DNA of 16,617 nt from a virus: the IMG/VR virus record IMGVR_UViG_3300029913_000003, positions 192,001-208,617 of that record, one strand, 5' to 3'. A program made the translations under genes and the position numbers. Below, one piece after another: positions 1 to 16,617 of the stretch; the stretch's first letter is position 1; the number at the start of each line of letters is the position of its first letter. Under the pieces are notes generated by a model. That model was not told the DNA's origin, did no database searches, and saw only the letters and a program-made list of their open reading frames with translations.

Positions 1-1392
1 AAATTTTGGATAAAAACCATTCTTATCATATTTATAAGCTCCTCTTCTTCCGATTTCAGTTGCTGCTGCAACAGGGTCGAATACTGAGTAATTTATATTT
101 CCGATAAAACTTGAATAACAAGGATTAACTTTTATTAATATTAATCCATTATTATCACAATGTTTATTTATTAAATTTGTTTGGAAGCCTAAGTTCCAAC
201 AATTATTTATTTTACGACGAACTTCTTTTGACATTTCATCCTGACTATTTGATTTAAAGTTTAAGTCTTCCATCACAAAATAACCACACTTGTAGTGAGT
301 TATTATATCAAATATCTTAACGTAAATGTTACCGATTTCATGTTTTCTTTTTCTGGTTAGATAAAGACTTTCGTCTACGGTAACATCTTTACCTGATTTT
401 TTCATCAACTCACTTAAGTCATAACATTTACTATCAATTACTTTAACTTCATCATTTGATGTTTTATCTAAGATTACTAAACCAATATAATCAGGATTTA
501 AATCAACTGCAGCAAATCTATTTTGATTTTTGCCTACAAGTTTTCGTGATGTTTGTTCTTGTTTATGTTTAATGTAAATGTTTTTGTCGTACTTACCATT
601 ATTCTTTTCTTTGATTTCCTTGATGTAAGTTTTATAATCAAAAGGTTCACCATTAATCATTTCATTATCAACTGTAATACAAAGATATTCATGATCTAAC
701 TTGACTGAAATAGGTAATATATTTAAGTCTTTAATTAATTGAAGATCCTTCAATTGTTTCTTATAATTACCTTTAACTACATAATTGATATAAATTTTAT
801 TCTCGCTGTTCATTTTATAAATGATTTGATTATTAGTAAAATCAAATTCAAAAAATCTATTAGAATTAGGATCACATTTAGATCCGTAAAGACTCAAAGG
901 AAGGATTCTATTCGAATGATATTCATCTGTTTTAGTAATTATAGTGTTTTTATTTTCCTTTTTATCATTATTTAAGTAGGATATTTCTTTTAGTAGTTTT
1001 CTTGTACCGAAAGTAATATCCTTTGATAAATTTCTATTTTTATAACTTAAGTTTTTCTGATATTTAAATAGATTCCTTGTTTCTTTTTTGGTTAATTTTA
1101 TTTTTGATTGTAATTCTTTTATATCATCTTGTAAATCAAGTATTTCCTGTGATAATTTATCTTTATTTGTTTGAATTTGCTTAAATTTTGTCTTAACATC
1201 AATTATTAAACAGTTAGACTCGTAAACACTCAAACCATATATTTTAGTTAATTTAGTAATATATTCTTTATCATTAATTTTATCATAATGTTTATAAAGT
1301 TTACGAAAGAAATATGAAAACTGTTTCTGACGATTTAATATTTTAAGTTTACCCTCTTCACTAACGTTAAATCCAACTTTTATTGATATCAT
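1..1392 (-). CDS. tnpB: IS607-family TnpB/Fanzor-like (OrfB) RuvC-type nuclease. It is 5'-complete (ATG at 1392-1390) and open through the window start, with 464 codons in the window and the C-terminus beyond position 1.
   Basis: I translated the minus strand from 1392 and found it open to position 1 in one frame. I spot-checked the frame at three places. The motifs fit TnpB: RFAAVDLNPDYIGLVILD (RuvC-I Asp), FVMEDLNFKS (RuvC-II Glu), VNPCYSSF (TnpB VDPxYTSQ-like) and FDPVAAATEIGRRG (RuvC-III D..AA.NI..RG). A coiled-coil-like K/E/L-rich N-terminal region is also present. The gene lies directly downstream of a MerR-HTH serine-recombinase tnpA, which is the IS607 arrangement. The CxxC..CxxC zinc finger normally found between RuvC-II and RuvC-III seems to be missing. 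Confidence 0.75.
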   Translation of the reverse strand, partial: MISIKVGFNVSEEGKLKILNRQKQFSYFFRKLYKHYDKINDKEYITKLTKIYGLSVYESNCLIIDVKTKFKQIQTNKDKLSQEILDLQDDIKELQSKIKLTKKETRNLFKYQKNLSYKNRNLSKDITFGTRKLLKEISYLNNDKKENKNTIITKTDEYHSNRILPLSLYGSKCDPNSNRFFEFDFTNNQIIYKMNSENKIYINYVVKGNYKKQLKDLQLIKDLNILPISVKLDHEYLCITVDNEMINGEPFDYKTYIKEIKEKNNGKYDKNIYIKHKQEQTSRKLVGKNQNRFAAVDLNPDYIGLVILDKTSNDEVKVIDSKCYDLSELMKKSGKDVTVDESLYLTRKRKHEIGNIYVKIFDIITHYKCGYFVMEDLNFKSNSQDEMSKEVRRKINNCWNLGFQTNLINKHCDNNGLILIKVNPCYSSFIGNINYSVFDPVAAATEIGRRGAYKYDKNGFYPKF

Positions 1393-1458
1393 ATATTATC
1401 TTGTAGTTCTTTTTTAATTTTATATCATTTATTATCTTGTAGTTCTTTTTTAATTTTA
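1386..1458. repeat. Near-perfect 36-bp tandem duplication (two copies, 1386-1422 and 1422-1458) spanning the tnpA stop and the tnpB start
   Basis: The unit tatcat[a/t]tattatcttgtagttcttttttaatttta occurs twice head to tail with one mismatch. Copy 2 carries the last nine tnpA codons plus its TGA stop. Copy 1 carries the tnpB ATG. Confidence 0.9.
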
Positions 1459-2168: not shown

Positions 2169-4652
2169 TTATTCCCATCTATTATTATAAATATTTGATG
2201 TATACAATTCTTTAGTTGCATTATCAGCTAATATTAAATTATTAGAATCTTGCACTACTCGTTGTAATAATAAATTAGATTTAGATTCATCAGGAATAAC
2301 ATCATCATATATCCTTATATTTGTCAATTTTATATTAGATGAATTTATTATTATATTTTGATCAACATTAAATGTATTTAATGGTACAGTTACTCCTTCA
2401 TATTCATCAATATATTTTATTGACGCTATATTATATAAACTTGTGTCAGTTAATTTATCAGCAATTTCAGTATTTTTAACTGGTCTATATCCATTTGATG
2501 TATAATACGATATGTCATTTATATTTGTATTATCTAATATAACACTTTTATAATTAGGTGTAAACATTGTTATTTTATAATTATATCTTCTTTTAAATAA
2601 ATCTAAACTTATTGTTCTTTGTCTATTATCTAAATTTACAGTTAAACCATACCACATATTTGTTGTTAATCCTGTTATTGGTAAACTATAATTTATGTTA
2701 TTTATAGTCAATGTTATATTATTATTTGCGTAAGATAATTTATATCCTTTATTATTAATTGAATCATAGTTGTTTATAAATTCAAAATAACTTTTATTAC
2801 TAACATAATAAGAATTAAATATATTTTCATCAATTGCCTTATTTGGATCAAAACTATTATTAAAATTAAACCACACATTAAATGCTCTATTATCACTAAA
2901 ATTCAAATTTGAATCTTTATATGTATAAGTAACTGCGGTTGTACCAGAAGATAATGATGATAAATTATAATAGCTATCTGCTATTTTTATATCTTTTAAT
3001 GAATTATAGATATCTTTTTTAATTATCTCTAATTTTGGATTAACAATTAATCTATAAACTTCGTGTGTTATAGGTTTTAATTGTTTATTTGCAATTTTAT
3101 CTTCTTGTTCTCTTATTTCTCCGCCAAATAAAGAATCTATAGTATTATTATTTGTTAATGATTCAATAAGATTTTTTGATGCATTAGAAACATTAGTTTC
3201 ATTTGCAAGTTTTTCATATTTTTCAAGAACAACATTATAATAAACACCCATATACATAATATCTCTTTTTACTTGAGCATGTTTAATTCTATACATACGA
3301 TTTGCTTGACAAAAATATATAATATCTTTTTGGAATGGTCTTTTTTCTATTCCAAATGCATTATGAAATTCGTCTTTTAATATAATAACTTGAAATGTAT
3401 CCATCATATCTAACATATATTCATTTATTTGAACTTGATTATCTGGAAAATTATTTTCAGGTACAATTATTTTTATTTTTTGTGTATCTACTATATTAAA
3501 TAATTGATATTCATGTAATATACTATCTATTCCTTTACCGTCAGGATCTGTTAAATGATAATCAACTGTCCATCCAAATATTTTACCTACTGTATTTGAT
3601 AAATATGTATACCAATCTCCTATTTTTTGTCCAGCATAAGGATTAAATATGCCTTGTGATGCTGCTGTTTGAGTTGAATCTAATCCAGTTGTATTACTTT
3701 GTGAACTTAGACTTGGTATAACATTACCTGATATATAACAACTTAATCCTTTTGTCACCCAATCTTTACTATAATCTAATGGAGTTTTACTATCACCTTT
3801 ATATGATGTTATACCATTTAAACAAACTGAATTTGTACCACTATCTGTTGAATTTGAAATTGTAGTTCCAGTATTTACTGCAGGATAAGAAACTGCACAA
3901 TCCTCTCTAACTCCATATCTATTAGTTTTAAGATAATTATTATTAATATTTTGAAAATCTCCTAATAATATAATATCATAAATTTTAGATGTTGTTCCAG
4001 TATTTATTTTAGAAACTGAATACTCAACTTGTGCAAATCTAATTGGATTTATTTTTACAGTTGATATATTTTCTGTTGTTAAATTTTCCCAAGGCGTATA
4101 TGTTCTACCATTATCTTGAGTGAATCTATATTTAATTTGTAAATTATTAGTATTTGATCCATATATTTCATAACCAGTTAATTTGAAAACTTTATAAATA
4201 TCTTTTGGGGTAAATAATATAAATTCATTATCTGGTATATTAACAATTGTATCTGTTTGTTCAATATCATAAGTTCCTTCGATTACAATTGTATTTATTG
4301 TAAGTGCTGGTATTGTAGTAGTATCAGCATCAATTCTATAATAAGCTAAATTTAAATATAAGTTATTTAATGAGCAATAATCTTGTGTAATTCCTGTAAT
4401 AGGAGAATACTCACTATAACTTATACCACTTCTTGTATTGCTATAAGAAAAATATTTTTTGAAATAATGATCATTAGTTTCTCCTTTTACAATATCTGTA
4501 AATTTTGTAATTGATGATATGCTTTTTAATGGAACGATAGAAAAATTTTTAATATCACGAATTTGAGTAGATATTTCATCTGTATACGTTGGAGTACCTA
4601 ACCAACTCATTGTAAAAGTACCATCAAATTTAGGAGTGTAAATATATCTCAT
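2169..4652 (-). CDS. Hypothetical 827-aa protein rich in N, Y, T and I. It is probably a structural protein.
   Basis: This is a long uninterrupted ORF in a roughly 75% AT background. Its composition and codon usage match the neighbouring genes. I recognised no specific motif. Confidence 0.6.
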   Translation of the reverse strand: MRYIYTPKFDGTFTMSWLGTPTYTDEISTQIRDIKNFSIVPLKSISSITKFTDIVKGETNDHYFKKYFSYSNTRSGISYSEYSPITGITQDYCSLNNLYLNLAYYRIDADTTTIPALTINTIVIEGTYDIEQTDTIVNIPDNEFILFTPKDIYKVFKLTGYEIYGSNTNNLQIKYRFTQDNGRTYTPWENLTTENISTVKINPIRFAQVEYSVSKINTGTTSKIYDIILLGDFQNINNNYLKTNRYGVREDCAVSYPAVNTGTTISNSTDSGTNSVCLNGITSYKGDSKTPLDYSKDWVTKGLSCYISGNVIPSLSSQSNTTGLDSTQTAASQGIFNPYAGQKIGDWYTYLSNTVGKIFGWTVDYHLTDPDGKGIDSILHEYQLFNIVDTQKIKIIVPENNFPDNQVQINEYMLDMMDTFQVIILKDEFHNAFGIEKRPFQKDIIYFCQANRMYRIKHAQVKRDIMYMGVYYNVVLEKYEKLANETNVSNASKNLIESLTNNNTIDSLFGGEIREQEDKIANKQLKPITHEVYRLIVNPKLEIIKKDIYNSLKDIKIADSYYNLSSLSSGTTAVTYTYKDSNLNFSDNRAFNVWFNFNNSFDPNKAIDENIFNSYYVSNKSYFEFINNYDSINNKGYKLSYANNNITLTINNINYSLPITGLTTNMWYGLTVNLDNRQRTISLDLFKRRYNYKITMFTPNYKSVILDNTNINDISYYTSNGYRPVKNTEIADKLTDTSLYNIASIKYIDEYEGVTVPLNTFNVDQNIIINSSNIKLTNIRIYDDVIPDESKSNLLLQRVVQDSNNLILADNATKELYTSNIYNNRWE

Positions 4653-4707
4653 TTTTAATTATTTTATATTTCTCTTATATATAAAAAATTTAATTATAAT
4701 ATATTTT

Positions 4708-5454
4708 TTAAAAATTAACTCTTTCTTTTACTCTTATTGCATAACTTAATATTGATTCATATGTATAATAAGAATTTTTCATTTTAGGGTCTTTATATAA
4801 TTTAAAATCAGGAATAGAAGAAATATCAACTTCTAATATTACCCATTCGTCGATATTCATATTGAATAATTCTGTCTTATCATATTTATTTTTAAAAAAT
4901 TTTCTTTTTTCTGCACAAAATTCTTTAGCATCTGACAAATTGTCAGTTAAATATACTCTATCTACATCATTAGATATCATATTTTGAGATTTAGGAACTA
5001 ATCCTATTTTTTTAATTTTTTCGTAATAATATTTTGTTGTTGCATGATATAATATATCAGGTGTTCCATCAGGTACATCAAATCTTTTTTGAAATGTTAT
5101 ATTAAATATTGTATCTTTTGATATCATTATACTTTTTATTTCTAATCCATTATTATCAATTATACTAGGTTTAAAATATCCCATATTATGCATAAAACTA
5201 GTCAATTCTTTATTAAATTGTTTTTTATTTACATTTGAAATATCAATTGATAATGAAATATATCCTTCTAATTTTTTTATTTCATATTTAATATTATATG
5301 ATTTTATTAAATTATCTAATTTTTCACAAAAAAAGTCATAATCAACAGAATGAATTAATCCCTCCTTCATAGCTAAATAAAAATGATTGTGAAAATAATC
5401 TGCTTCTTCATTAAAATTTCTATATTTTTCAAAATTTTTAAACCTATCTAGCAT
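4708..5454 (-). CDS. 248-aa protein whose C-terminal half resembles the NAD-binding lobe of Tpt1/KptA RNA 2'-phosphotransferase (ADP-ribosyltransferase fold). The catalytic motifs look divergent.
   Basis: The segment ILYHATTKYYYEKIKKIGLVPKSQNMISNDVDRVYLTD lines up with E. coli KptA [32 protein letters not shown], sharing LYH.T, EIKK.GL and R..(V/Y).L. The Tpt1 signature RH and RxHxH histidines are not conserved. I am recalling this from memory and did no search. Confidence 0.4.
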   Translation of the reverse strand: MLDRFKNFEKYRNFNEEADYFHNHFYLAMKEGLIHSVDYDFFCEKLDNLIKSYNIKYEIKKLEGYISLSIDISNVNKKQFNKELTSFMHNMGYFKPSIIDNNGLEIKSIMISKDTIFNITFQKRFDVPDGTPDILYHATTKYYYEKIKKIGLVPKSQNMISNDVDRVYLTDNLSDAKEFCAEKRKFFKNKYDKTELFNMNIDEWVILEVDISSIPDFKLYKDPKMKNSYYTYESILSYAIRVKERVNF

Positions 5455-5492: not shown

Positions 5493-5524
5493 TATATAAA
5501 ATTTTGAATGATAAATTTTATATA
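5493..5524. promoter_or_regulatory. Inverted repeat (12-bp arms tatataaaattt / aaattttatata, 8-nt spacer) in the divergent intergenic region between 4708..5454(-) and 5544..6317(+). It contains the decamer AAAATTTTGA at 5498-5507.
   Basis: I verified the arms by reverse complementation. The ATG at 5508 listed in the ORF track sits in the loop, which argues that the real start is 5544. Confidence 0.4.
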
Positions 5525-5543
5525 TAAGAGAAAACATTTTTTT

Positions 5544-6317
5544 ATGGCTATAATCACCCCTAATGATCTTATTAATCCAACAGAAAAAACAATAAAGAAC
5601 TGGAATTGCTCATTTATTGCAGTTGAAGGTCCAAATATAATTGAAAAATTAAGCTTAGAAGATTTGGCTATTCCATATGAATCTCAATATAGATCGAGAA
5701 TAGTTTTAAAAGCTGGTGAATCTAATAAAATGCTTTACGGATTTATTGGTAAGGCTGTTACATTCTTAATGATAAAAGTAACTTATGATAGTTTATCTGA
5801 TCCATATTATACATATGAACAAGAAAAATATAATATAAATTATTATTTTGAAAATGATCCTATTCTTAGACCATTAAATAGATTATTAATAATGACAGGT
5901 TCTTCTGATGAAAGAATACCACAAATTTATGTGACAAATCCATTAGATTATGACGTAACATTAGATGTATTAGAAGCAACAGTTGATTCTGAATTTGATG
6001 AAGATGATGATATACCTGCTGATTATCAAATACATTATGCTATAACAAATATATCAAGTACATATTCTGGAAAAACAGATGATGAATATATAAGATGTTC
6101 TGGTACAACAGAATCAGGTTCTACATATTCATTATATTTACCGTTAGCAACTGGTACAGGAAATGTATTAACAATCAAAAATATATTAAACGGAGTTATA
6201 ACTATTTTAACACAAGATACAGATTTGATTGATGGTTTAAATTCATATGTATTAAATACTCAATATGAAGTAGTCGTGCTAATTGATGCAGGTACTGGTA
6301 TCTGGGATAAAATATAA
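5544..6317 (+). CDS. Hypothetical protein, paralogue A of a tandem pair. Its N-terminal domain is shared with 6325..7200.
   Basis: I prefer the start at 5544 (MAIITPNDL...) over the track start at 5508. The paralogue begins MAKITSNSL at an equivalent position, and 5508 lies inside a hairpin loop. The conserved blocks are IKNW..F....GP, AIPY.S.Y.SRIVL, KVTY and DPYY.YE...YNINYY......P..RLL...GS......QIY..NPLDYDV.LDV..A. Confidence 0.6.
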   Translation: MAIITPNDLINPTEKTIKNWNCSFIAVEGPNIIEKLSLEDLAIPYESQYRSRIVLKAGESNKMLYGFIGKAVTFLMIKVTYDSLSDPYYTYEQEKYNINYYFENDPILRPLNRLLIMTGSSDERIPQIYVTNPLDYDVTLDVLEATVDSEFDEDDDIPADYQIHYAITNISSTYSGKTDDEYIRCSGTTESGSTYSLYLPLATGTGNVLTIKNILNGVITILTQDTDLIDGLNSYVLNTQYEVVVLIDAGTGIWDKI

Positions 6318-6324
6318 TATAAAT

Positions 6325-7200
6325 ATGGCAAAAATAACAAGTAATAGTCTTTATGGTAAAACAAAAAGAGAAATAAAAAATTGGGGTAGAGATTTTAGAA
6401 CATCAGATGGACCTCAAACATCTTCTGTTATGAGTCTCAGTGATATTGCAATACCGTATGATTCATGTTATACATCAAGAATAGTATTACCTTCTTATAC
6501 TGAAGATTTTTTATTAAATTATGGTATAATTGAAGAATCTACTTTTTTATTATTAAAAGTTACATATAATGGTAATTATGATAATGAGAATGAAGATGCG
6601 TATGATCCATATTATTATTATGAACCAAGTACATATAATATTAATTACTATTATGATTCTAATTCAGGTATAACATATCCAATTGGAAGATTATTGCTTT
6701 TAAATGGCTCATTTCCAAATAAATTAGGACAAATTTATTTGAATAATCCATTAGATTATGATGTAGTTTTAGATGTAATGCAAGCTAATATTGAAGCTCC
6801 AATAGTTCAACCACCAAGTAGTGCAGTAACGATATCAAATTTGTATTATAGTGACATTATAACAAATCAAGTTGAATGTTATTCTTATACTGGATTAACA
6901 ACAGGATCTACTGAATTTATTATTACTGGAATTACATCTTCAATAATAAGTACAGGTTATACAATTACACAATATATAATTCCATATAATACTATTATAT
7001 CAATAAATTCAGATACATCATTATATTACATTTACATAAACACTACATCAACTTATTATACTATTAAATTTTTAACTCAATCTGATTATGAACAAGCATA
7101 TTTTAGAATAATATTCGCGTATTCATCATATACAGATGGTAATTGTAGATATTTAACTACAACAGAAACATACGATAGTGGTAATAATATAAATTGTTAA
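6325..7200 (+). CDS. Hypothetical protein, paralogue B of the tandem pair. Its N-terminal domain is conserved and its C-terminal half is unrelated.
   Basis: The same conserved blocks as 5544..6317 are present. I chose the start at 6325 (MAKITS...) rather than the track start at 6283, which overlaps the previous gene. The gap after the upstream stop codon is 7 nt. Confidence 0.6.
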   Translation: MAKITSNSLYGKTKREIKNWGRDFRTSDGPQTSSVMSLSDIAIPYDSCYTSRIVLPSYTEDFLLNYGIIEESTFLLLKVTYNGNYDNENEDAYDPYYYYEPSTYNINYYYDSNSGITYPIGRLLLLNGSFPNKLGQIYLNNPLDYDVVLDVMQANIEAPIVQPPSSAVTISNLYYSDIITNQVECYSYTGLTTGSTEFIITGITSSIISTGYTITQYIIPYNTIISINSDTSLYYIYINTTSTYYTIKFLTQSDYEQAYFRIIFAYSSYTDGNCRYLTTTETYDSGNNINC

Positions 7201-7219: not shown

Positions 7220-7960
7220 ATGACTATTATATATTATAATTCTCCTATAAGTGGAACTACTTGGATTGGTAGTGGAACTACTGTACCACATAATGCATAT
7301 TTGCATTTATATCATGATAGTGTTACAGGTTGGACATTAAATAGTTTAAAACATCTATTCATTAGTGGAATAACTGGTTGCATTTCAGTGAATATACCAT
7401 TAGATAATATAACTTTTGAGTTATATGAGAAAGGTACAAATATACAATTATATGAATTAACAAAATATGGACAATATTTTATATATATTTCAATTTCAGA
7501 TTCTGTTGGAAATATAACTACATCATATATTTATAATATTGTTGTAAATGATAGTTCTCCTGAAATAATATTTAATTGTAATATTTTTAATTCAGGATTG
7601 ACAGGAAATACTATTGATTTTTCTGGAGCAACTGGTATAACATCAGGAATTAATATTTATTCTGGCGTAACATTTAATCTTTTTGAATTTGATAAAAATA
7701 TAATTAATAAAGTTGATATAATTTATAATTGTATATGCTATGTGATTGATAATATTGATTATTGTATCAATAAATATATGATAAATGTTTTAATTATAGG
7801 ATCAAATTTATTAAATAATAATGAGTATCAAGAAATTTCTATACCAGGTTATTATTGCATAAAATTATCTTTAATAAATAGTACAAATTATGAGATTGTT
7901 TATTATTTTCTTGTAGATGCTGTTTATGATCCAAATAATTATAATTCTAATATTTATTAA
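7220..7960 (+). CDS. Hypothetical 246-aa protein
   Basis: The ORF is co-directional with its neighbours and starts 19 nt after the previous stop, in a TAAATG context. I recognised no motif. Confidence 0.5.
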   Translation: MTIIYYNSPISGTTWIGSGTTVPHNAYLHLYHDSVTGWTLNSLKHLFISGITGCISVNIPLDNITFELYEKGTNIQLYELTKYGQYFIYISISDSVGNITTSYIYNIVVNDSSPEIIFNCNIFNSGLTGNTIDFSGATGITSGINIYSGVTFNLFEFDKNIINKVDIIYNCICYVIDNIDYCINKYMINVLIIGSNLLNNNEYQEISIPGYYCIKLSLINSTNYEIVYYFLVDAVYDPNNYNSNIY

Positions 7961-8013
7961 TATTATTGACCTAATAAAATAAATATATAAATTAGTAAAA
8001 ATTAAATAAATAA

Positions 8014-8631
8014 ATGAGTAAAGTAACTTTTGATGGATCAGCAAAAATAATAACTATAAATAGTGGAGTAACAAGTATTGATGTTAAAACTGATTTATAT
8101 TTAGAATGGAAGCAATGGGTATTAGAAGGAGATAATTCTAAATGGCTAGCTGCATTCAGATCATTTGGTGGTGATCCAACTACATTAAATCAAAATGCTC
8201 CAAGCTACTTTTTTTTAACTAATAATTGGATAGTTAAAATAGAAAATTTAAATGTAGCAATACAAGATAATTTATATTCAGATGATTATGATATTCCTTA
8301 TCTAAATATAAATTCTACAATATTATCAAAAAATTCTGATATACCTAGTATTGATAGTTTAACTGGTATTACAGAAACATTATCAGATATGAATAATACT
8401 ATCATAGATATTTCATTTGATGTTAAACATATATTAGGATTATCACAGCAAAATTATAGATTAAGTAATCATGTTTATGATGATGATTTTAGATTGACAT
8501 CAGTTACAATAAAATTATTTAATACTAAAACTGATTGTAATAATAATGTTAATAGTTTTGCTAATTATACAATGAATGCGGCTTATGATGATAATGGATT
8601 ATTAATTGATTATAAAGTAGTTAAAAATTAA
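8014..8631 (+). CDS. Hypothetical 205-aa protein
   Basis: This is an ORF in the same co-directional cluster. Its N-terminus KVTFDGSAKIITINSGVTSIDVKTDLYLEWKQWV looks like a globular beta-rich domain. I recognised no confident family. Confidence 0.5.
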   Translation: MSKVTFDGSAKIITINSGVTSIDVKTDLYLEWKQWVLEGDNSKWLAAFRSFGGDPTTLNQNAPSYFFLTNNWIVKIENLNVAIQDNLYSDDYDIPYLNINSTILSKNSDIPSIDSLTGITETLSDMNNTIIDISFDVKHILGLSQQNYRLSNHVYDDDFRLTSVTIKLFNTKTDCNNNVNSFANYTMNAAYDDNGLLIDYKVVKN

Positions 8632-8639
8632 TTCTTATT

Positions 8640-8978
8640 ATGATTAATCACATAACAACAAATTTAGTAACTAAAGGTTTATTGAATATTTCTAATATTA
8701 CAAAAGGAATGATACAAATTAAGTATCAAATAATATTTAGAAAAAGAGGAGGATCGAGTGCTAATGTTGTTCATTCATATGATAATGATGAAGCATTCTA
8801 TGATGAACTTAGAAAGCATAAAGAAGAAGAAATTGACTACATAAAAGTGTTTGTTGATTGGAAAGGAGCAAAATTAAAAGCATTTAAAAAAATTGAAGTT
8901 AAATTATTAAAAGAACATATTGAAGCAGAAATATTATTAAAAACAAATAAAAAATTCACAGTAGAAATAATAAAATAA
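8640..8978 (+). CDS. Hypothetical 112-aa basic protein
   Basis: The ORF starts 8 nt after the previous stop, and a hairpin follows it immediately. Confidence 0.45.
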   Translation: MINHITTNLVTKGLLNISNITKGMIQIKYQIIFRKRGGSSANVVHSYDNDEAFYDELRKHKEEEIDYIKVFVDWKGAKLKAFKKIEVKLLKEHIEAEILLKTNKKFTVEIIK

Positions 8979-9008
8979 AAAAGATGTAATTTATATTACA
9001 TCTTTTTT
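8977..9008. terminator. Perfect AT-rich stem-loop between the convergent genes 8640..8978(+) and 9023..9583(-). The stem is up to 14 bp (core aagatgtaat/attacatctt) and the loop is ttat.
   Basis: I verified the arms by reverse complementation. There are only two G:C pairs and the T-run is part of the stem. This looks more like the AT-rich 3'-end hairpins reported for Mimiviridae transcripts than a classical rho-independent terminator. Either way it is a bidirectional 3'-end signal candidate. Confidence 0.5.
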
Positions 9009-9022
9009 TATAAATATTTAAG

Positions 9023-9583
9023 TTATTTAAATGAATCAAATTTCATTATACTGGAAACTACTTTTTCTTCTTTTTTAGATTTTTCTGTTTCTTCATCAAC
9101 ATCTTCTTCAACAATTTCTATTTTTTTCTCAAAAGCTGCTTCCAATTTTGAGATTGTGTCATTTTTCTCGACTACTTTTTCAACTTTTTTTTCAACTTTT
9201 TTTTCAACAATTGGTTTATTTTCAAATTTTGTTTCTGATACAGATATTCTTGGTTTATTTGAAGGTTTTTGAATTTCAGATACCATTTCTTCTATTTTAA
9301 TAGAAGCTTTACTTTTTATTTCAAAATTATCTTGCCACACTGGAAAATATAAATCTTCTGATATAATTTCAAATTTTATTTTTCCATTATCACCTTTTTC
9401 ATATAGACTCAATTTAGGAATTTCAAATCTACAAATATCATTTTCAATCTTACCTATTAAAAGAACATTTTTATTTTCTTTTGTCATTAATATTAATCTT
9501 GGCTCAACATCATTTACGTTAATGCCATCACTATTTATTTTAAATTTTAAAATATCATTCTCTTTATTGTTAAATAAATCCAT
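9023..9583 (-). CDS. Hypothetical 186-aa protein with a K/E-rich acidic-basic repetitive C-terminal tail (VEKKVEKKVEKVVEK)
   Basis: It is the only minus-strand ORF in this stretch. Its own AT-rich upstream region is 9584-9688. Its C-terminal tail is low-complexity. Confidence 0.5.
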   Translation of the reverse strand: MDLFNNKENDILKFKINSDGINVNDVEPRLILMTKENKNVLLIGKIENDICRFEIPKLSLYEKGDNGKIKFEIISEDLYFPVWQDNFEIKSKASIKIEEMVSEIQKPSNKPRISVSETKFENKPIVEKKVEKKVEKVVEKNDTISKLEAAFEKKIEIVEEDVDEETEKSKKEEKVVSSIMKFDSFK

Positions 9584-9603
9584 ATTAATTATTTATTTTT
9601 TAT

Positions 9604-9651
9604 ATTCTATATATTAATAAAAAAATATAGAATTATATATTAAAATTTTGA
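9604..9651. promoter_or_regulatory. Divergent promoter region. A 9-bp inverted repeat (attctatat / atatagaat, 12-nt spacer) lies at 9604-9633, and a second copy of the decamer AAAATTTTGA lies at 9642-9651.
   Basis: The arms are verified. The decamer sits 47 nt upstream of the 9689 ATG, and the identical decamer sits 46 nt upstream of the 5544 ATG. Confidence 0.35.
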
Positions 9652-9688
9652 TCTTCTTTTTTTAATATATAATAAAAAATTAAGTTTA

Positions 9689-11047
9689 ATGTCAACTGGA
9701 GTAATACTTCCAAATAATTCGTTAATAGCAGATTTGACCAGTAAATATTGGCTTTATTTTTCAGATAATTTTGGAAGTATAAATGCTACACTTATTAATG
9801 ATTCTAATGGACATCCAATAACAGGATATATATCTGGAAGAACCTCAATTTATTATGATTTTGATTATTCTGGTAATACTCAAGAAGGTAGAATACCAAA
9901 CACTGATGTAGATTTTACTGCTGTTGCCATTGGGCAAAATATCGCTAGATATTCTATAATTAAAGGTGTAATCACAAGTGGTTTAACAAATATAATTTTA
10001 ACTTCGGATACAGATTGGAATTATTCTGGTAATACTCAAGGAACAAGTGGCACATCAGGAATAGATGGAGAAAATGGTACATCAGGAGCTTCTGGTAGTG
10101 AAACTCTTGAACTTACAATTACTGGAGTTCAAGATGGTATAAATAAGAATTTTATATTATCTAGCGGAGTCAGTTATATCCACATGTTTTATGTTGATGG
10201 TCAATTACAAACATATAATAACGATTATTATGTTTCTGGATTAACTTTAACATTTATTAAAATACCACCTAAAGAAAGTGATATTTTAAGATTATTCATC
10301 ACACAGCATGGCGGTGTTTTTGGTACATCAGGAACAGATGGAACATCAGGAACAGATGGAACATCAGGAGCTTCTGGTAGTGAGTCTCTTGAAATTACAA
10401 TTACTGGAATTCAAGATGGTATAAATAAGAATTTTATATCATCAAGTGGTATTAGTGAAAATCATATGTTTTATGTTGATGGTCAATTACAAACATATAA
10501 TAACGATTATTATGTTTCTGGATTAACTTTAACATTTATTAAAAATCCTCCTAAAGAGAGTGATATTTTAAGATTGTTTATTACTCAGCATGGCGGTGTT
10601 TTTGGTACATCAGGAACAAACGGTACAAGCGGATCATCAGGGTCATCAGGTAGTTCAGGGTCATCAGGTAGTTCAGGTTCATCAGGTAGTTCTGGAACAA
10701 ATGGTACATCAGGTATAAATGGAGATATTATAAACGAAATTGATATTTCTGGAATTCAAGATGGAGTAAATAAAAATTTTATATTATCAAATGAAATTGT
10801 AAGTGAAAATCATATGTTTTATGTAGATGGACAATTACAAACATATAATAATGACTATTATATCTCTGGATTAACTTTAACATTTATTAAAATTCCGCCT
10901 AAATATAATTATATTTTAAGATTGTTTGGTAGTATAGGCACAAATTATCATAATGGAATTACTATTAATCAAAATATTGTTGTTGATAATTATGGAACAA
11001 TAAAAACATTAAATATTGTTAATGGTTTGATAATATCAATAACATAA
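9689..11047 (+). CDS. Collagen-like repeat protein of 452 aa. It has G-X-Y tracts (GTSGTDGTSG...) alternating with three globular modules of about 94 aa each. I read it as a fibre/fibril component.
   Basis: G-X-Y runs occur at about 10040-10100, 10321-10385 and 10606-10735, including (GSS)8. The module ITG(V/I)QDG(I/V)NKNFI.S....S..HMFYVDGQLQTYNNDYY(V/I)SGLTLTFIK.PPK...ILRLF is repeated three times. Confidence 0.7.
   Translation: MSTGVILPNNSLIADLTSKYWLYFSDNFGSINATLINDSNGHPITGYISGRTSIYYDFDYSGNTQEGRIPNTDVDFTAVAIGQNIARYSIIKGVITSGLTNIILTSDTDWNYSGNTQGTSGTSGIDGENGTSGASGSETLELTITGVQDGINKNFILSSGVSYIHMFYVDGQLQTYNNDYYVSGLTLTFIKIPPKESDILRLFITQHGGVFGTSGTDGTSGTDGTSGASGSESLEITITGIQDGINKNFISSSGISENHMFYVDGQLQTYNNDYYVSGLTLTFIKNPPKESDILRLFITQHGGVFGTSGTNGTSGSSGSSGSSGSSGSSGSSGSSGTNGTSGINGDIINEIDISGIQDGVNKNFILSNEIVSENHMFYVDGQLQTYNNDYYISGLTLTFIKIPPKYNYILRLFGSIGTNYHNGITINQNIVVDNYGTIKTLNIVNGLIISIT
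10132..10940 (+). repeat. Three internal direct repeats within the collagen-like gene. Copies 1 and 2 are almost identical at the nucleotide level, and copy 3 is diverged.
   Basis: For example, caagatggtataaataagaattttata occurs at 10132 and again at 10414, a period of about 282 bp. The third copy is near 10756. There is also a 9-bp-unit microsatellite (ggtagttca/ggttcatca) at about 10630-10700. Confidence 0.85.
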
Positions 11048-11098
11048 ATTATCAATAACATAAATTATCAATAACATAAATTATCAATAACATAATTT
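11035..11098. repeat. 16-bp tandem repeat atcaataacataaatt in four copies, the last with one mismatch. It overlaps the stop codon of 9689..11047 and ends 35 bp before the fibre gene ATG.
   Basis: I counted the repeat directly: 11035-11050, 11051-11066, 11067-11082 and 11083-11098. Confidence 0.9.
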
Positions 11099-11132
11099 TA
11101 TATATAATATAAATAAAAATAAATTAAAAATA

Positions 11133-14100
11133 ATGAGTACAAGATTAGATGCGAATGATAGATTAAAAGGATTAAGTTTTAAAAAACCTTGTATCGTTGC
11201 GACATTAGAAAATGTAAATTTAACAGGGTCAACTAATGTAATTGATGGAGTATCTTTAAATTTAAATGATAGAATATTAGTCATAAATCAGATAGATCAG
11301 ATAGATAATGGTATTTATATTGTTTCAAATGTTGGTACAGGTTCTGATGGCGTTTTATTACGAGCAAATGATTTTTCTACAAGTGATGATATATTTGCTG
11401 GAATTAACATTTATATTTTATCAGGAGATACATATAATGATAGTTATTTCATATTAAATACCGAAAATCCTATATTAGATATTACTCCGTTATTTTTCTC
11501 TAATAAAAAAATGTTAGATACTCAAAATGTAAGTAATAATCAAGTATTATTATATAATAATAATTCAATAATTGGTTATACAGGACTAACATATGATGGT
11601 AATACATTAGATATAAATGGTAATGTTAATATAACAGGTAATACAACAGTAATTGGAAATATTATTTCAAATACAATATCTGTAACAGGAGGAACTTCAA
11701 CTCAATTTTTAAAAGCTGATGGATCTATTGATTCAACATCATATACTGATTTTAATTTATTTACTGGTGAAACATTTGATAGAATAAGTGGTGATACATA
11801 TTTGAATAATTTATTAACAGGTGAAACATTTGATAGATTATCAGGTGATACATTTTTAAATGAATTATTAACAGGTGAAACATTTGATAGAATTTCAGGA
11901 GATACATTTTTAACTGAATTATTAACTGGTGAAACATTTGATAGAATTTCTGGAGACACAGTATTAAATGATTTAATTACAGGATTAACTTCAACAGTTA
12001 ATAATAATTATAATTTATTAACAGGTGAAACATTTAATAGAATAAGTGGAGATACAGTATTAAATGATTTAATTGAAGAGTTATCAATAAATGCTCAAAA
12101 TCAAATGAATAATGAAATTAATAATAGAATTTCAGGAGATACATTATTGAATAATTTACTAACTGGTGAAACATTTGATAGAATAAGCGGAGACACTTTT
12201 TTAAATGAATTATTAACAGGTGAAACATTTGATAGAATAAGCGGAGACACAATATTAAATAATTTAATTACTGGATTGACATCAACAGTTACGGATAATT
12301 ATAATTTATTAACAGGTGAAACATTTAATAGAATTTCAGGAGACACATTTTTAAATAATTTAATTACAGGATTAACACAGAATATTATAAATAATTATGT
12401 ACCTTATACTGGATCTACATCAAATATAGACTTAGGATATAATAATTTAACAGCTAGTTCAATTATTAAATCTGGTGGTACATCTAATCAATTTTTAAAG
12501 GCTGATGGAACTATTGATATAACTACATATTCAAATACTGGTCATAGTCATTATCAATTATTTCAACCAAATGGTACAACTCCTTTTGTCTATACAGATA
12601 ATGGTGGGTCATTTCATATTGATGGAAATATTATTCAATCAGGATCAACATATGAAACTCATACAGAACAAATATACACTACTAAAGATTATATTTATTT
12701 GAGAAGTGGAGCAACTTCTGGATTACCTGATGGACAATATGCAGGATTTACAGCTAAATTATATGACGGATCTAATGATGGTCAATTAGTCTTTGATAAT
12801 AAAGGCTTTGCAAGAGTTGGAGACGTAGGTAGTTTATTGAAATTAGCAGCTATTCAAGAAACACCTACAGATACACAATTTACTTACTATGATGCTGCAA
12901 CTTATTCATTAAAAACACGTGCTTTTTTAAGTGGTGATATTACAACGGCTTTAGGATTTACTCCTTATAACGCAACTAACCCATCTAATTATATAACAAT
13001 TGGATCAGTTCCTGTTGTAGCTACAACAACTCCTTTAATAAATGGAATTGCTGCAATTGGAGCAAGTGGTAAATGGGCTGATGGAGCACATGTTCATCCA
13101 GTTGATACTTCAAGACAAGTTGCATTAAGCGGAACTGGATTTGTAAAAAGCACATCAGGAACTATTAGTTATGACACTTCTACTTATATTCCAGTCACAG
13201 GAAATACAAATACAATAAACTTAGGTGTTAATAATTTAACAGTAGATACAAATACTCTGTTTGTTGATTCTGTTCATCACTATTTAGGTATTACTACAAA
13301 TAATCCTAATGCGTCAGTTGATATTGGAGGTTTTGGTACACCTTCTGATTATGGAGGAGGAACTGGTACGGCTAAAGTTTTAATTGCTGATAACGCGACA
13401 GGGTCATCTGGTGTTCAAATGTATAATTCTAATTCAGGAACAGCCTCTGATTTTAGATTTGCCATTTTTAATAATAATAAAAATGAATATATGGCATTTT
13501 CAACGCCAGCCGATACTAATACTAATACTTTATTTGGATTTGCAAGAAGTACATCTAATTATTTATTTAATAATTTAAATGGAGTAGGTGGCACTCTTAG
13601 AAATTTAACTATTGGTACGGTTGGAAGTTCTGACCTTATATTTGGAACTAACAATGTAGAAAATTTAAGAATAAAATCTGGAGGTAATGTCGGGATTGGA
13701 ACTACTACTCCAGGAACGTTATTAGAAATAAGTAACTCTGCAAATATATCTATTAATTCAATTTTAAGGATTAGAGACATTAATACTGGTGGTTCATATT
13801 TTGATATCGGTTCTGCTAATGGTAGTAGTGGATTATTCATTAATCAAGGCTCTACTAAGATAATGCAAATTAGAAGTAGTGGAAATGTAGGATTTGGAAC
13901 TTCATCAACCCCTAACGCAAGATTTAATATTTATAAAAGTGGAATAATTGATTATTTCAATATTACAAGTTCAGTTGATGGTGATGTGATGGTTATCTTA
14001 AATAATGGCAACGTCGGGATTGGAGCTACCACTCCAGACCAAAAATTATCAGTTTGGGGTGGTTCACAAAATATTATTGATCCAACAACTTTAGGTTCTG

Positions 14101-16617
14101 AAAGCTTAACTAATGGTACGTTATCTGGTGGAACTTCTTGGACTGCAACAAATGATTGTACTTTAGTATCTAATAACGCAACTTGGACTTTTTCTGGTGG
14201 AACTGCTTCAACTCTTACACAAACGAATGCTAATTTAACAGTTGCAGGAGTAGGATATAGATGGTATAAATTTGTTTATACAGTATCAGCTATTTCTGGA
14301 ACTCCATCTGCATCAATAACAACATCTTTTGGCGGATCAACAACTTCTCTTACTATAACAGCTGGAGCACAAACTACTTATTTTAAAGCAGCTACTACAC
14401 CTACTGATTTTGTTATTACTTCTACTTTGGTATCAGGACAGACATTCACATTGGGTACGTTTTCGTTAAAAGAAGTTCAAGGTGGAAATTTAATAACTGG
14501 TGGATTGTTAACTGGTGGAGGTACAACTGGTATTAAAGTTTTAGCAAATGGAAATGTTGGAATTGGAACAACTACTCCTGGACAATTACTTGAAGTAAAT
14601 AATGGGCACATAAATGTTTTAAATACCAATTATGGACTTCTATTAGCTTCTAATCAAGCTCTAACTAGGAATGGAGCAAAACTTGTACTTGCTAACTCAA
14701 GTGCATTTACTTCTATGGGGTTGAGTACCGTAGGAGTTGAAAGAATTTCTATTGATAGTTCAGGGAACGTAGGTATTGGAGTAACTCCAACGTCTATGCT
14801 TACTCAAAAATCTACAACCGCATTAGAATCTGCTACGTTAGGAACTGAATTAACAGCTTCTGGAGATACTTGGGGATTAGCAACAACTAAAAGCATAACT
14901 GCTTTTGCAAATTATGGATCTACTGTTGCTGGAACAGTTGAAGTAACTTCAAATGCTCATGGATTTCCAGCTGGAACAACAACTAATGTTGTAATATCAG
15001 GAACTACTAATTATAATGGTACATACACAATAACATATATTGATGTTAATAACTTTTATATTACGGCAACTTGGGTATCGAACGATGCAACTGGAACTGC
15101 AACTCAAACTGGTTGGTCTGGAACTTATGCTGGTGGATACACACACTCAACTGGAAATACAACAGCATTAACTGATTCTACATTGGTTCCAGTGGTTGGT
15201 AATTTATACCAAATAACTTATACAGTAACAAATAGGACGACAGGAACATTTACGATTACATTCGGCGGAGTTACATCTTATACTTATTCAGCAACAGGCT
15301 CATATGGTCCTAAAGCTGCAACAGTAGGAACATTAACTATTGCTCCAACGACTGATTTTAATGGCACAATAATACTTTCAATTAAATTAATTGCATCATA
15401 TTCTCCTATTTATGTTATTCAAGATAGTTCTTCTGCTAATACATTAGAAATTCGTAGTTCTTTAAATACTTCAGTAAATTTATTCATAGGTAAAAACTCT
15501 GGAAGATATAATACAACAGGTATTAATAATACTTCACTTGGATCTGGAGCGTTACCGATAAATTCAACTGGATTTAATAATGTTGCAATTGGTGGTAGTG
15601 CTATGCAAGCGAATACAGCTGGATTTTCTAATATCTCTATAGGTTTTAATTCCCTTTTAAGCAATACTGTCGGTTATGCCAATACATCAATTGGTAATGC
15701 AACTCTACAAAATAATTCTATTGGTTATTATAACACAGCAGTTGGTATAAGTGTTCTTGTCACTAACACAGCTGGGTATTATAATACAGGCATTGGAGCA
15801 AGCGCGCTTAGTTCAAATTCTACTGGATATTATAACACTGCGATAGGAATTAATTCTATTAATTTAAATACTACTGGTTTTTATAATACTGCATTAGGTG
15901 GTAATTCTCTTAGTTCAAATTCAGTTGGATCATACAATACTGCTGTTGGCTATTCATCGATAAGTAATATTGTATCTTCATATAATACTGCTATTGGTTA
16001 TATATCTGGTCGTTATATAACTGGAGGGGTAACAACTAATATCAATTCTTATAATTCTGTCTATATTGGAGCAAATACAATGGCATCTGCTGATGGCAAT
16101 TCAAATGAAATAGTAATTGGATATAACGCAACTGGTAATGGAAGTAACTCAGTAACATTAGGTAATACATTAATTACTAAAACTATTTTACAGGGTAATA
16201 CTGGTATTGGCGGATATACAACTCCTTTACATTTCTTAGATAATACTCAAACTCAGAATCAACGCACTGTTTATGGATTAAACGTGGTGATGAATGCTAC
16301 TAATCTTCAACAAGATATAGTATCTACAGGTAATGATGAACCACTTTTAAATCAATACTATGCCTGGAAATTTACCGCAAGTGCTGCAAACACAATGGGT
16401 TCGTTATCAGTTAGATTGAAGAAAATAGGTACTGTTACAAATACAACAGATTATATTAGACTTAAATTATATTCAGATACAGGTACAGCCCCAAATGCTT
16501 TATTATACACTTCTGATCAGGTTAAAATGGGCACATTAACGACTTCTTATGTTGAATACTTGTTTGGTGGAGACTATACGATGGTTAATGGTACTTCATA
16601 TTGGTTAGTAGTTGAAA
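11133..16617 (+). CDS. Giant fibre/adhesin-like protein of more than 1828 aa. It is 3'-truncated by the window edge. It carries tail-fibre-like repeats and YadA-head-like beta-helical repeats.
   Basis: The ATG is at 11133 (MSTRLDANDRLKGL...) and the frame stays open to the last base, verified at 13380 and 16560. All ORFs the track lists in this span are antisense or off-frame shadows. The fibre contains 18-aa tandem repeats LTGETFDRISGDTxLNxL at about 11755-12390, five SGNVGIGTTTP(G/D)..L-type motifs from 13681 to 14790, and N-T-A-(I/V)-G 14-15-aa repeats at about 15520-16000. The composition is G/T/N/S-rich throughout. Confidence 0.8.
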   Translation, partial: MSTRLDANDRLKGLSFKKPCIVATLENVNLTGSTNVIDGVSLNLNDRILVINQIDQIDNGIYIVSNVGTGSDGVLLRANDFSTSDDIFAGINIYILSGDTYNDSYFILNTENPILDITPLFFSNKKMLDTQNVSNNQVLLYNNNSIIGYTGLTYDGNTLDINGNVNITGNTTVIGNIISNTISVTGGTSTQFLKADGSIDSTSYTDFNLFTGETFDRISGDTYLNNLLTGETFDRLSGDTFLNELLTGETFDRISGDTFLTELLTGETFDRISGDTVLNDLITGLTSTVNNNYNLLTGETFNRISGDTVLNDLIEELSINAQNQMNNEINNRISGDTLLNNLLTGETFDRISGDTFLNELLTGETFDRISGDTILNNLITGLTSTVTDNYNLLTGETFNRISGDTFLNNLITGLTQNIINNYVPYTGSTSNIDLGYNNLTASSIIKSGGTSNQFLKADGTIDITTYSNTGHSHYQLFQPNGTTPFVYTDNGGSFHIDGNIIQSGSTYETHTEQIYTTKDYIYLRSGATSGLPDGQYAGFTAKLYDGSNDGQLVFDNKGFARVGDVGSLLKLAAIQETPTDTQFTYYDAATYSLKTRAFLSGDITTALGFTPYNATNPSNYITIGSVPVVATTTPLINGIAAIGASGKWADGAHVHPVDTSRQVALSGTGFVKSTSGTISYDTSTYIPVTGNTNTINLGVNNLTVDTNTLFVDSVHHYLGITTNNPNASVDIGGFGTPSDYGGGTGTAKVLIADNATGSSGVQMYNSNSGTASDFRFAIFNNNKNEYMAFSTPADTNTNTLFGFARSTSNYLFNNLNGVGGTLRNLTIGTVGSSDLIFGTNNVENLRIKSGGNVGIGTTTPGTLLEISNSANISINSILRIRDINTGGSYFDIGSANGSSGLFINQGSTKIMQIRSSGNVGFGTSSTPNARFNIYKSGIIDYFNITSSVDGDVMVILNNGNVGIGATTPDQKLSVWGGSQNIIDPTTLGSESLTNGTLSGGTSWTATNDCTLVSNNATWTFSGGTASTLTQTNANLTVAGVGYRWYKFVYTVSAISGTPSASITTSFGGSTTSLTITAGAQTTYFKAATTPTDFVITSTLVSGQTFTLGTFSLKEVQGGNLITGGLLTGGGTTGIKVLANGNVGIGTTTPGQLLEVNNGHINVLNTNYGLLLASNQALTRNGAKLVLANSSAFTSMGLSTVGVERISIDSSGNVGIGVTPTSMLTQKSTTALESATLGTELTASGDTWGLATTKSITAFANYGSTVAGTVEVTSNAHGFPAGTTTNVVISGTTNYNGTYTITYIDVNNFYITATWVSNDATGTATQTGWSGTYAGGYTHSTGNTTALTDSTLVPVVGNLYQITYTVTNRTTGTFTITFGGVTSYTYSATGSYGPKAATVGTLTIAPTTDFNGTIILSIKLIASYSPIYVIQDSSSANTLEIRSSLNTSVNLFIGKNSGRYNTTGINNTSLGSGALPINSTGFNNVAIGGSAMQANTAGFSNISIGFNSLLSNTVGYANTSIGNATLQNNSIGYYNTAVGISVLVTNTAGYYNTGIGASALSSNSTGYYNTAIGINSINLNTTGFYNTALGGNSLSSNSVGSYNTAVGYSSISNIVSSYNTAIGYISGRYITGGVTTNINSYNSVYIGANTMASADGNSNEIVIGYNATGNGSNSVTLGNTLITKTILQGNTGIGGYTTPLHFLDNTQTQNQRTVYGLNVVMNATNLQQDIVSTGNDEPLLNQYYAWKFTASAANTMGSLSVRLKKIGTVTNTTDYIRLKLYSDTGTAPNALLYTSDQVKMGTLTTSYVEYLFGGDYTMVNGTSYWLVVE
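11755..12390 (+). repeat. 54-bp (18-aa) tandem repeat array inside the fibre gene. Copies of ttaacaggtgaaacatttgatagaat(t/a)(t/a)caggagatacattttt are interrupted by two NNYNLLTGETFNRISGDT variants.
   Basis: I read the array directly. It is flanked by two roughly 60-nt related segments encoding (T/S)GGTS(T/N)QFLKADG(S/T)ID at about 11680-11740 and about 12470-12530. Confidence 0.85.

Follow-up and report, generated by a model that had tools for sequence, protein, structure and literature searches.

The 3′ end of a 16,617-nt stretch of viral DNA (positions 192,001 to 208,617 of IMG/VR record IMGVR_UViG_3300029913_000003, hereafter the window) carries a giant gene that very probably encodes the first 1828 of the 2152 residues of a homotrimeric, modular virion fiber of an uncultured jumbo phage with a G+C content of about 26%, most likely a tail fiber used for adsorption to the host. 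The protein is assembled from separable modules, contains beta-helices homologous to those of solved trimeric fibers, ends in a distal cassette that is exchanged with small phages, and carries a patch of localized variation within that cassette. An initial annotation, made from the sequence alone, had proposed a trimeric host-recognition fiber, and this proposal was supported by the jumbo-phage context, by matches to PHROG families, by profile homology to a solved fiber (8OND, E = 1.4e-29), by His-x-His (HxH) motifs and by the distal cassette. Proteins that share modules with the fiber carry Peptidase_S74, BppL_N, Phage_tail_C or PTR domains. We regard the fiber as an unusually long, otherwise ordinary case of the module-shuffled fibers with which phages recognize their hosts. 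The new elements are descriptive, namely a module map, a set of abundant uncharacterized modules, the sharing of a cassette between jumbo and small phages, and the variable patch; the current view of tail-fiber mosaicism is not overturned.

Gene structure and modular make-up

The gene opens with an ATG at position 11133 and continues on the plus strand as a single open reading frame (ORF), stop-free to the end of the window (11133–16617; codons 1–1828 of 2152). The expectation that a protein of more than 1828 residues runs past the window was borne out: the complete product, database protein P0001, is 2152 residues long and is 100% identical across the part in the window, which holds the first 85% of the fiber. 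P0001 was present on six contigs, the longest of 346,561 bp, and a second full-length protein, P0349, also has 2152 residues. In the near-identical genome L028 (a 244,678-bp ENA contig) the gene call is 6459 nt long (10001–16459), so that the gene in our record would end near position 17591, 974 nt past the window.

BLAST comparison with 74 database proteins revealed a mosaic, in which separate modules match separate proteins, and no full-length homolog other than P0001 was present among these 74 matches. Nothing significant was found in Pfam, either for the whole protein (E ≤ 1) or for ten separate pieces of it, and the sole NCBIfam match of the full protein was to the choice-of-anchor R family. 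Repeats were far beyond chance expectation, with Tandem Repeats Finder scores of 280–710 for periods of 54, 96 and 291 nt, and a repeat search of the fiber region reported multi-copy families. G+C content at third codon positions (GC3) was uniformly low across the gene, ranging from 0.00 to 0.21 and slightly raised (0.21) in the last module alone; we therefore attribute the G+C difference along the gene to amino acid composition, and rejected foreign DNA as the source of the higher G+C in its 3′ two-thirds.

In the architecture that we propose, an N-terminal domain would be followed by a bracketed shaft of 18-residue repeats, an HxH domain, beta-helices that each open with a GNVGIGTTTPxxLxV capping loop, inserts rich in Thr, Gly and Ser (T/G/S), a solenoid of 17-residue repeats, and a distal cassette composed in turn of a beta-sandwich, a 10-residue repeat, a C-terminal domain and a conserved tip of about 50 residues. 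The repeat arrays and beta-helices would form a long trimeric shaft, and the distal cassette would contact the host surface; its beta-sandwich and 10-residue repeat are candidates for the regions that make this contact. Junction motifs, including GGTSxQFLKADG and the capping loops of the beta-helices, may act as recombination points. Specificity could evolve through cassette swaps at these junctions with phages of the same host, and through replacement of the patch in the 10-residue repeat; the sequence patterns of both kinds of exchange are apparent, and their functional effects are conjectured. The map describes a very long fiber, and the jumbo phage that encodes it is related to the megaphages, none of which had been brought into culture by 2021 (PMC9723777).

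Homology to trimeric beta-helix fibers

We consider the homology of the central module to structures of mosaic adhesive trimer (MAT) fibers to be the strongest sequence-level evidence for a trimeric fiber. Five copies of the motif GNVG(I/F)G...P...L.V lie at residues 851, 917, 959, 1140 and 1211, with spacings of 66, 42, 181 and 71 residues; these are the five SGNVGIGTTTP copies of the initial annotation, now confirmed with a spacing of 42–181 residues. A sixth, degenerate copy, GNTGIGGYTTPLHFLD, is located at residue 1688. In addition to 8OND, profile A6, which represents this module, matched the PDB entries 8OML (E = 1.1e-15), 8OJN (3.7e-13), 8OL4 (1.2e-8) and 8ON4 (1.6e-6), and even a single sequence, searched with no profile, matched a MAT structure at E = 0.0018. 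The capping loops of the fiber were also aligned directly to those of Bd2133. The solved MAT fibers are intertwined trimeric beta-helices with edges that carry a capping loop of the form V-G-G/N-pi-x-x-P-x-x-x-L, and these helices resemble those of phage T5 pb1 and K1F endosialidase (PMC10769870). Judged by sequence, the SGNVGIGTTTP motif is the MAT capping loop. The profile matches place a putative MAT-type intertwined beta-helix module at positions 13623–14087, with three capping loops (13683–13730, 13881–13931 and 14007–14054), and a motif scan placed two further capping-loop motifs (14550–14597 and 14763–14780) in positions 14523–14822.

The resemblance to the MAT fibers of Bdellovibrio bacteriovorus (Bd2133, 8OND; Bd1334; Bd3182; PMC10769870) includes the homologous beta-helix and capping loop, a mosaic build in which the proximal part is conserved while the distal tips can be swapped, and the absence of an S74 domain, a trait of the non-S74 subgroup of MAT proteins (PMC10769870). 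Unlike these proteins, which predatory cells display, the fiber is encoded by a phage; at 2152 residues it has twice the length of Bd2133 (1031 residues), and its tip is unrelated by sequence. It also has an 18-residue array, an HxH domain, a 17-residue solenoid, a choice-of-anchor R sandwich and a 10-residue repeat, none of which our searches located in any solved structure. Given the jumbo-phage context, we treat the fiber as sharing modules with the MAT proteins without counting it in the Bdellovibrio set, and the MAT capping-loop beta-helix can be counted as a building block of environmental phage fibers as well.

Among phage fibers, T5 pb1 (4UW8) and the K1F endosialidase stalk (3GW6) share the trimeric beta-helix type of Bd3182 (PMC10769870); sequence and profile searches of the PDB gave no direct match to either structure. 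Some relatives of the fiber's modules end in Peptidase_S74, as S74-type phage fibers do, whereas the fiber itself lacks this domain. The long tail fibers of T4 (gp34–gp37) are comparable in being long and segmented, in having HxH motifs, and in distal horizontal exchange between unrelated phages, but consist of four proteins instead of one 2152-residue chain. No homology to solved T4 fiber proteins was detectable.

AlphaFold2 (AF2) models were of monomers, and the putative homotrimer is read from the MAT homology together with the HxH motifs. The first of these motifs, HSH (12543–12551), begins a conserved domain of about 150 residues (12519–12992; residues 463–620) that starts with (S/T)GH-x-H-Y-Q-L-Y-Q-P-N-G. 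The domain is 53–73% identical across many fiber-like proteins, including the fiber of the small phage contig L001 (66% amino acid and 85% nucleotide identity), and matches phrog_34297 at 1.8e-17; a profile search of the PDB returned no relative. A poorly conserved stretch of about 210 residues follows (12993–13622), and contains the second motif, HVH (13089–13097; residues 653–655), in an AHVHP context that also occurs in P0115. Four of the 12 histidines of the fiber sit in the two HxH motifs, an arrangement seen in 0.17% of shuffles, and the first motif is kept in homologs. In T4 gp37 and related fibers, metal ions on the threefold axis are coordinated by His-x-His motifs, and by analogy a metal site may lie on this axis here. 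The region between the second bracket motif and the first SGNVGIG copy measures about 390 residues, shorter than the 500 or so initially given. A weak match to 6OE6 in the PDB searches of the modules was discarded, as it aligns to a run of six histidines resembling a His-tag.

The beta-helix module is interrupted by a T/G/S-rich insert between capping loops (14088–14522). P0074 matches residues 975–1115 of the fiber in this part at 36% identity, and a family search of the insert gave no match; its sequence pattern is suggestive of a small beta-sandwich-like domain. Further T/G/S-rich domains occupy positions 14823–15473, of which the last 125 or so residues (15090–15473) are conserved and always precede the 17-residue repeats in relatives.

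A distal cassette shared with small phages

From about residue 1688 to its end, the fiber matches a 797-residue protein, probably also a fiber, of contig L001, a small phage that carries its own terminase and portal. Amino acid identity is 73% (alignment from residue 1655) and reaches about 97% over residues 1710–1880, and positions 16218–16617 of the window are 91% identical to L001 at the nucleotide level. Within the window, positions 16191–16617 cover the sixth, degenerate capping loop (16194–16211) and the start of this cassette of about 460 residues, as delineated by the identity to L001, AF2 modeling and a match to NF041539. The cassette also ends proteins of 547–800 residues on contigs of 30–43 kb; these relatives differ in the length of the 10-residue repeat and in the extreme tip, which has been exchanged, and in some an S74 chaperone takes the place of the C-terminal domain (P0092 and P0093). 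A shared distal cassette would link the jumbo phage and a small phage to one low-G+C host.

Beyond the window, the fiber contains a fourth repeat class, with about 11 units of the 10-residue sequence STNSxGVxGx (residues 1885–1994). P0001 ends in a motif of about 50 residues (...GGMYFDTTLNKMRIGGATGWETITSV) that is found at 65–90% identity on many unrelated contigs, and that also ends four proteins flagged PF26696. The initial annotation had predicted a C-terminal chaperone, which is absent from the recovered full-length protein: a Pfam search of the last 343 residues found no family, including Peptidase_S74 (PF13884) and the YadA anchor. P0016 and P0025 are examples of relatives that have other modules in common with the fiber and do carry Peptidase_S74. 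The AF2 model of the cassette (mean predicted local distance difference test (pLDDT) score of 52) was confident solely at residues ~1723–1845 (80–88), which adopt a predicted beta-sandwich. This part coincides with the match to choice-of-anchor R (NF041539), which covers residues ~1724–1866 of P0001 and scored 31.0 bits against a cutoff of 30 (E = 2.1e-7).

A hydrophobic protein of 150–166 residues, resembling a multi-pass membrane protein, follows the fiber gene in the jumbo phages (L002, 1092–1592; L028, 16476–16976) whereas in the small phage (L001, 12785–13237) another gene separates the two. The copies share 67% identity and match no Pfam or PHROG family. This protein appears to move together with the distal cassette, and its possible roles include those of a holin, a superinfection-exclusion protein or a receptor-masking protein. 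Directly upstream of the small-phage fiber, L001 encodes a 718-residue protein (7717–9873) with a sub-threshold match to Fib_succ_major (29 bits versus 33.9). This domain is typical of Fibrobacter and Bacteroidota, and the match gives a weak hint at a shared host lineage.

N-terminal domain and placement on the virion

At the presumed virion-proximal end is a beta domain of about 110 residues (11133–11522; residues ~15–125), delineated by its relatives, PDB profile matches, AF2 modeling and BFVD. It was originally described as part of a unique head of about 190 residues, a description that did not hold, as the domain is a common module with 13,002 related proteins at E ≤ 1e-3. This very large, uncurated family comprises virion-fiber and decoration proteins, lacks a model in both Pfam and NCBIfam, and would lend itself well to definition as a new domain family. 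A re-scan revealed that domains of this type are often in tandem, with up to 10 copies per protein, and the domain is at the N-terminus in 27 of the 150 best relatives. Its profile matched the tail fiber of phage LME-1 in the PDB (9EFK, E = 2.7e-14), where 18 chains indicate six trimers, and it matched phrog_11518 ('tail fiber protein') at 1.9e-12. AF2 produced a confident small beta domain (pLDDT 88); Foldseek found no match to this model in the PDB (best E = 0.9), and there were many fold matches in BFVD at a template-modeling (TM) score of about 0.7, mostly named tail fiber, major tropism determinant (Mtd) N-terminal domain or lambda Stf repeat. The LME-1 protein (orf22 of a Legionella podophage) and a second structure, 9NX3, share this domain with our fiber, and the remainder of both had no further match to it in these searches. 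In LME-1 the domain is internal (residues 293–385), whereas in the jumbo-phage fiber it is N-terminal. The LME-1 structure paper left the distal fiber regions unmodeled.

Several results weigh against the reading as a trimeric tail fiber for host adsorption. The second structure matched by the N-terminal profile, 9NX3, is a capsid decoration protein (E = 8.2e-14), a few of the BFVD fold matches are named capsid decoration, and cultured-phage annotations of the domain are split between tail fiber and head decoration. No baseplate, sheath or tail-tube gene was found within the 26 kb seen, so that placement on the tail is our inference. The AF2 model of the distal cassette is poor overall, and the fold matches of its beta-sandwich in the PDB were weak and generic (carbohydrate-binding modules, TNF-like domains and jelly rolls of phage fibers). 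The structures of the 18-residue array, the HxH domain, the 17-residue solenoid and the C-terminal domains are guesses, because none has a solved or curated relative.

Part of this evidence would suit a virion fiber attached to the capsid, as a head or decoration fiber, or to the neck, as a whisker, and serving reversible adhesion or environmental sensing instead of primary receptor binding. Consistent with such a location, the domain is at the N-terminus of 9NX3, is found in proteins of PSS2, Phrappuccino and Yvonnetastic that are annotated as head or capsid decoration, and matches phrog_2647 ('head decoration', 1e-13) as well as the BFVD decoration entries, and the 827-residue protein encoded upstream, informative via its homologs, is neck-like. 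However, the domain also occurs inside the LME-1 tail fiber, and among the matches listed tail fiber names outnumber decoration names. The cassette at the distal end also terminates the short fibers of small phages, and in some relatives is followed by S74, a typical feature of tail fibers and spikes. Diversification of a patch and exchange of cassettes are, moreover, expected of a determinant of specificity. We consider a head or neck fiber unlikely, and prefer a tail fiber for host adsorption.

A variable patch in the 10-residue repeat

The 90% cluster of P0001 has one other member, P0349, which is encoded on the 244,678-bp ENA contig and has the same length. The two proteins differ by 35 substitutions, all of them between residues 1854 and 1960 (107 codons), with none in the other 2045 residues. 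This patch lies about 80–400 nt past the window end (15560–15880 in L028), and the genomes around it are nearly invariant: the window and L028 have 0 substitutions over 15.2 kb and differ only in the copy number of two tandem repeats, and L002, which carries the P0349 allele, has 1 mismatch to L028 in 11 kb. Compared with the L001 fiber, the patch of P0001 is identical at 93 of 107 positions, and that of P0349 at 73 of 106. The patch is probably a specificity hotspot, marking a likely site of specificity tuning that would be useful for host prediction and engineering. We favor its origin by recombinational replacement over a diversity-generating retroelement (DGR), because there is no template-like copy within 10 kb on either side, no reverse transcriptase family is listed for the called genes, and Gln, Lys, Met and Trp appear at variable sites.

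It is conceivable, though improbable, that the 10-residue repeat is a dedicated non-DGR diversification site, fed through programmed gene conversion by silent donor cassettes in other parts of the 245–347 kb genome and not by occasional recombination with co-infecting phages, and that the 18-residue array, the HxH domain and the 17-residue solenoid each have a fold absent from solved structures. The alternative 107-codon patches have sharp borders in two otherwise identical genomes.

Template-directed adenine mutagenesis by a DGR is very unlikely to have made the patch. DGRs occur commonly in large phages, where fiber tips are their targets, the changes are extremely localized in otherwise identical genomes, and some BFVD proteins matched by the fold of the N-terminal domain bear the name 'Major tropism determinant N-terminal domain-containing'. 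However, no template-like copy was found within 10 kb on either side (best non-self matches, ≤23 nt), and none of the gene calls in L028 is listed with a Pfam reverse transcriptase family. Gln, Lys, Met and Trp, which mutagenesis of AAY codons cannot yield, are found at variable sites, and the identity of the P0001 patch to the fiber of a different phage at 93 of 107 positions is what exchange predicts. Recombinational replacement remains the favored explanation for the patch.

Repeat modules of the presumed shaft

The 17-residue repeat, NTA(I/V)G..(A/S)L..N(T/S).G(Y/F)Y, occupies positions 15474–16190, with about 10 units in clean register at residues 1448–1617 and degenerate units to about residue 1686. 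The initial count of at least ten units was about right, but their period is strictly 17 residues and not the 14–15 residues first given. The module matches phrog_4636 ('tail spike protein') at 3e-20 over residues 1478–1593, and its tblastn matches were mostly under genes annotated as tail fiber, tail spike or virion structural proteins, one of them under a P-SSM2 gene annotated 'T4-like proximal tail fiber'. Together with the preceding domain of about 125 residues it forms a conserved cassette that is the most matched part of the fiber (up to 40 of the 74 proteins). We presume that the repeat forms a beta-solenoid. The repeats share with YadA-head/Hep_Hag sequences short units punctuated by Asn and Gly, an N-(S/T)-(A/V)-(I/V)-G core and a plausible beta-solenoid; the period, however, is 14 in those proteins and 17 in the fiber. 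The resemblance to them that had been suggested gained no profile support. A PDB profile search with the module returned no match, including to any trimeric autotransporter adhesin (TAA) structure; Hep_Hag was absent from a Pfam search of the isolated repeat region (E ≤ 10), in which the sole TAA-related match was UspA1_rep (E = 2.5); and none of 13 homologous segments of the module matched any Pfam family. Membership in Hep_Hag (PF05658)/YadA was rejected for lack of a profile match, the 17-residue period, and the absence of a YadA anchor.

These repeats bear on the idea that the gene encodes a cellular surface adhesin, MAT-like or trimeric-autotransporter-like, on a chromosome or prophage remnant. 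This idea is extremely unlikely: the sole solved relatives of the beta-helix are cell-surface MAT fibers of Bdellovibrio, the NTAIG repeats are superficially like a YadA head, and the choice-of-anchor R match is to a family in NCBIfam, which was built for bacterial and archaeal annotation, choice-of-anchor domains being marks of surface proteins, but the N-terminus, as read from its sequence, has no hydrophobic stretch resembling a signal peptide, searches of the full protein detected none of the cell-anchor families, the YadA anchor and Hep_Hag included, the neighboring genes are conserved in megaphages in the same order, the homing endonuclease, NAD synthase and glycosyltransferases downstream fit a jumbo phage, and the closest relative of the distal cassette adjoins a terminase and a portal.

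Nearer the N-terminus, the junction motif GGTS(T/N)QFLKADG(S/T)ID occurs twice, at residues 186–200 and 448–462, exactly as the duplicated brackets of the initial annotation would have it. The first copy, GGTSTQFLKADGSID (11688–11732), recurs at module borders in many unrelated matches, and the second, GGTSNQFLKADGTID (12474–12518), has the highest match coverage in the N-terminal half; the 57-nt stretches that start at the brackets (11688–11744 and 12474–12530) are 81% identical. Between them lies the 18-residue repeat array (11757–12401; residues 209–423), presumed to be a shaft, which comprises 8 full LLTGETF(D/N)R(I/L)SGDTxLxx units, 1 half unit and three 14-residue LITGLT spacers, built on a higher-order duplication of 97 residues (291 nt). 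The array itself was correctly recognized at the outset, and the estimate of about eleven repeats is fair if partial units are included but exceeds the 8 full ones. Related 18-residue arrays are present in the fiber-like proteins P0029, P0042, P0056 and P0075, some related arrays are rich in Glu, Ala and Gln and helical-looking, and a PDB profile search found no solved relative. A 26-bit Pfam match to DGOK on the array was dismissed as a repeat artifact. The array contains an exact repeat of 41 nt with copies 345 nt apart and in frame, making the proposed recombinational change in its length mechanistically possible; no such change was observed, as both known alleles (7 contigs) have 2152 residues and are identical through residue 1853. 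The abundant fiber modules that have no Pfam family or solved structure are targets for structure determination.

Genome context and neighboring genes

The window has a G+C content of 26%, and the very AT-rich genome to which it belongs is that of a jumbo phage, neither a cell nor a small phage. An 827-residue protein encoded at 2169–4652 on the minus strand has full-length homologs with 29–39% identity in LR756501-4 and LR745206 (634–735 kb), uncultured phages that are recognized megaphages (PMC9723777) and have the largest phage genomes known. Partial homologs are gp88 of Sphingomonas phage PAU, located between the large terminase and the tail sheath, and a protein of Chryseobacterium phage MA9V-2 annotated 'neck protein'. 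We found no Pfam, PHROG or NCBIfam family for the 827-residue protein, which is a conserved structural marker of the jumbo/megaphage lineage. Its gene is divergent to two adjacent paralogs (5508–6317 and 6283–7200; 269 and 305 residues) that have the motifs IAIPY(E/D)S.Y.SRIVL and NINYY in common, and this arrangement is kept in LR756501. A candidate for an analogous giant gene in megaphage LR756500 was ruled out; there, the modules are in separate ORFs of 333–961 residues. Downstream of the fiber gene, L028 and L002 encode a small membrane protein, NAD synthase, a GIY-YIG/NUMOD3 homing endonuclease, glycosyltransferases and an IPT/TIG protein.

The gene immediately upstream of the fiber (9689–11047) encodes a 452-residue collagen-like protein with three repeats of about 94 residues (282-nt period, 86–91% nucleotide identity) separated by Gly-X-Y runs. 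It matches Pfam Collagen (2e-9) and several PHROG tail-fiber families, and may be a second, shorter fiber. A 16-nt tandem repeat, TATCAATAACATAAAT (11034–11114), spans the stop of this gene and ends about 20 nt before the start of the fiber gene; with 5 copies in the window and 3 in L028, it is polymorphic in copy number between near-identical genomes. The −35-like hexamer of the best promoter-like match comes from its last unit, and shuffled sequences had at least as many sigma-70-like sites. About 20–35 nt upstream of the starts of the fiber gene, the 827-residue gene and several others there is a TATATAA-type element, and regions 4651–4686 and 11096–11131 are 86% complementary over 36 nt. 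The element had 10 matches where 3.75 were expected, weakly above expectation in AT-rich DNA, and on this weak evidence it could be a shared late promoter. Searches for Rfam and tRNA features found none.

On the minus strand, positions 4708–5454 encode a 248-residue protein with a sub-threshold match to the RNA 2′-phosphotransferase Tpt1/KptA (E = 0.0096, 16 bits). An IS607-type element occupies positions 1–2027, also on the minus strand. Its TnpA serine recombinase (1425–2027), with a MerR-type helix-turn-helix, matches phrog_6620 at 2.6e-44, is 77% identical at the nucleotide level, across 204 nt, to ISCaje4 of Campylobacter phage CP220, and was present on 21 contigs. The TnpB-related ORF, of at least 465 residues, runs off the window and matches TIGR01766 at 28.7 bits, below the cutoff of 32. 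A 36-nt tandem duplication around the TnpA stop in the window (1383–1454) is single-copy in L028.

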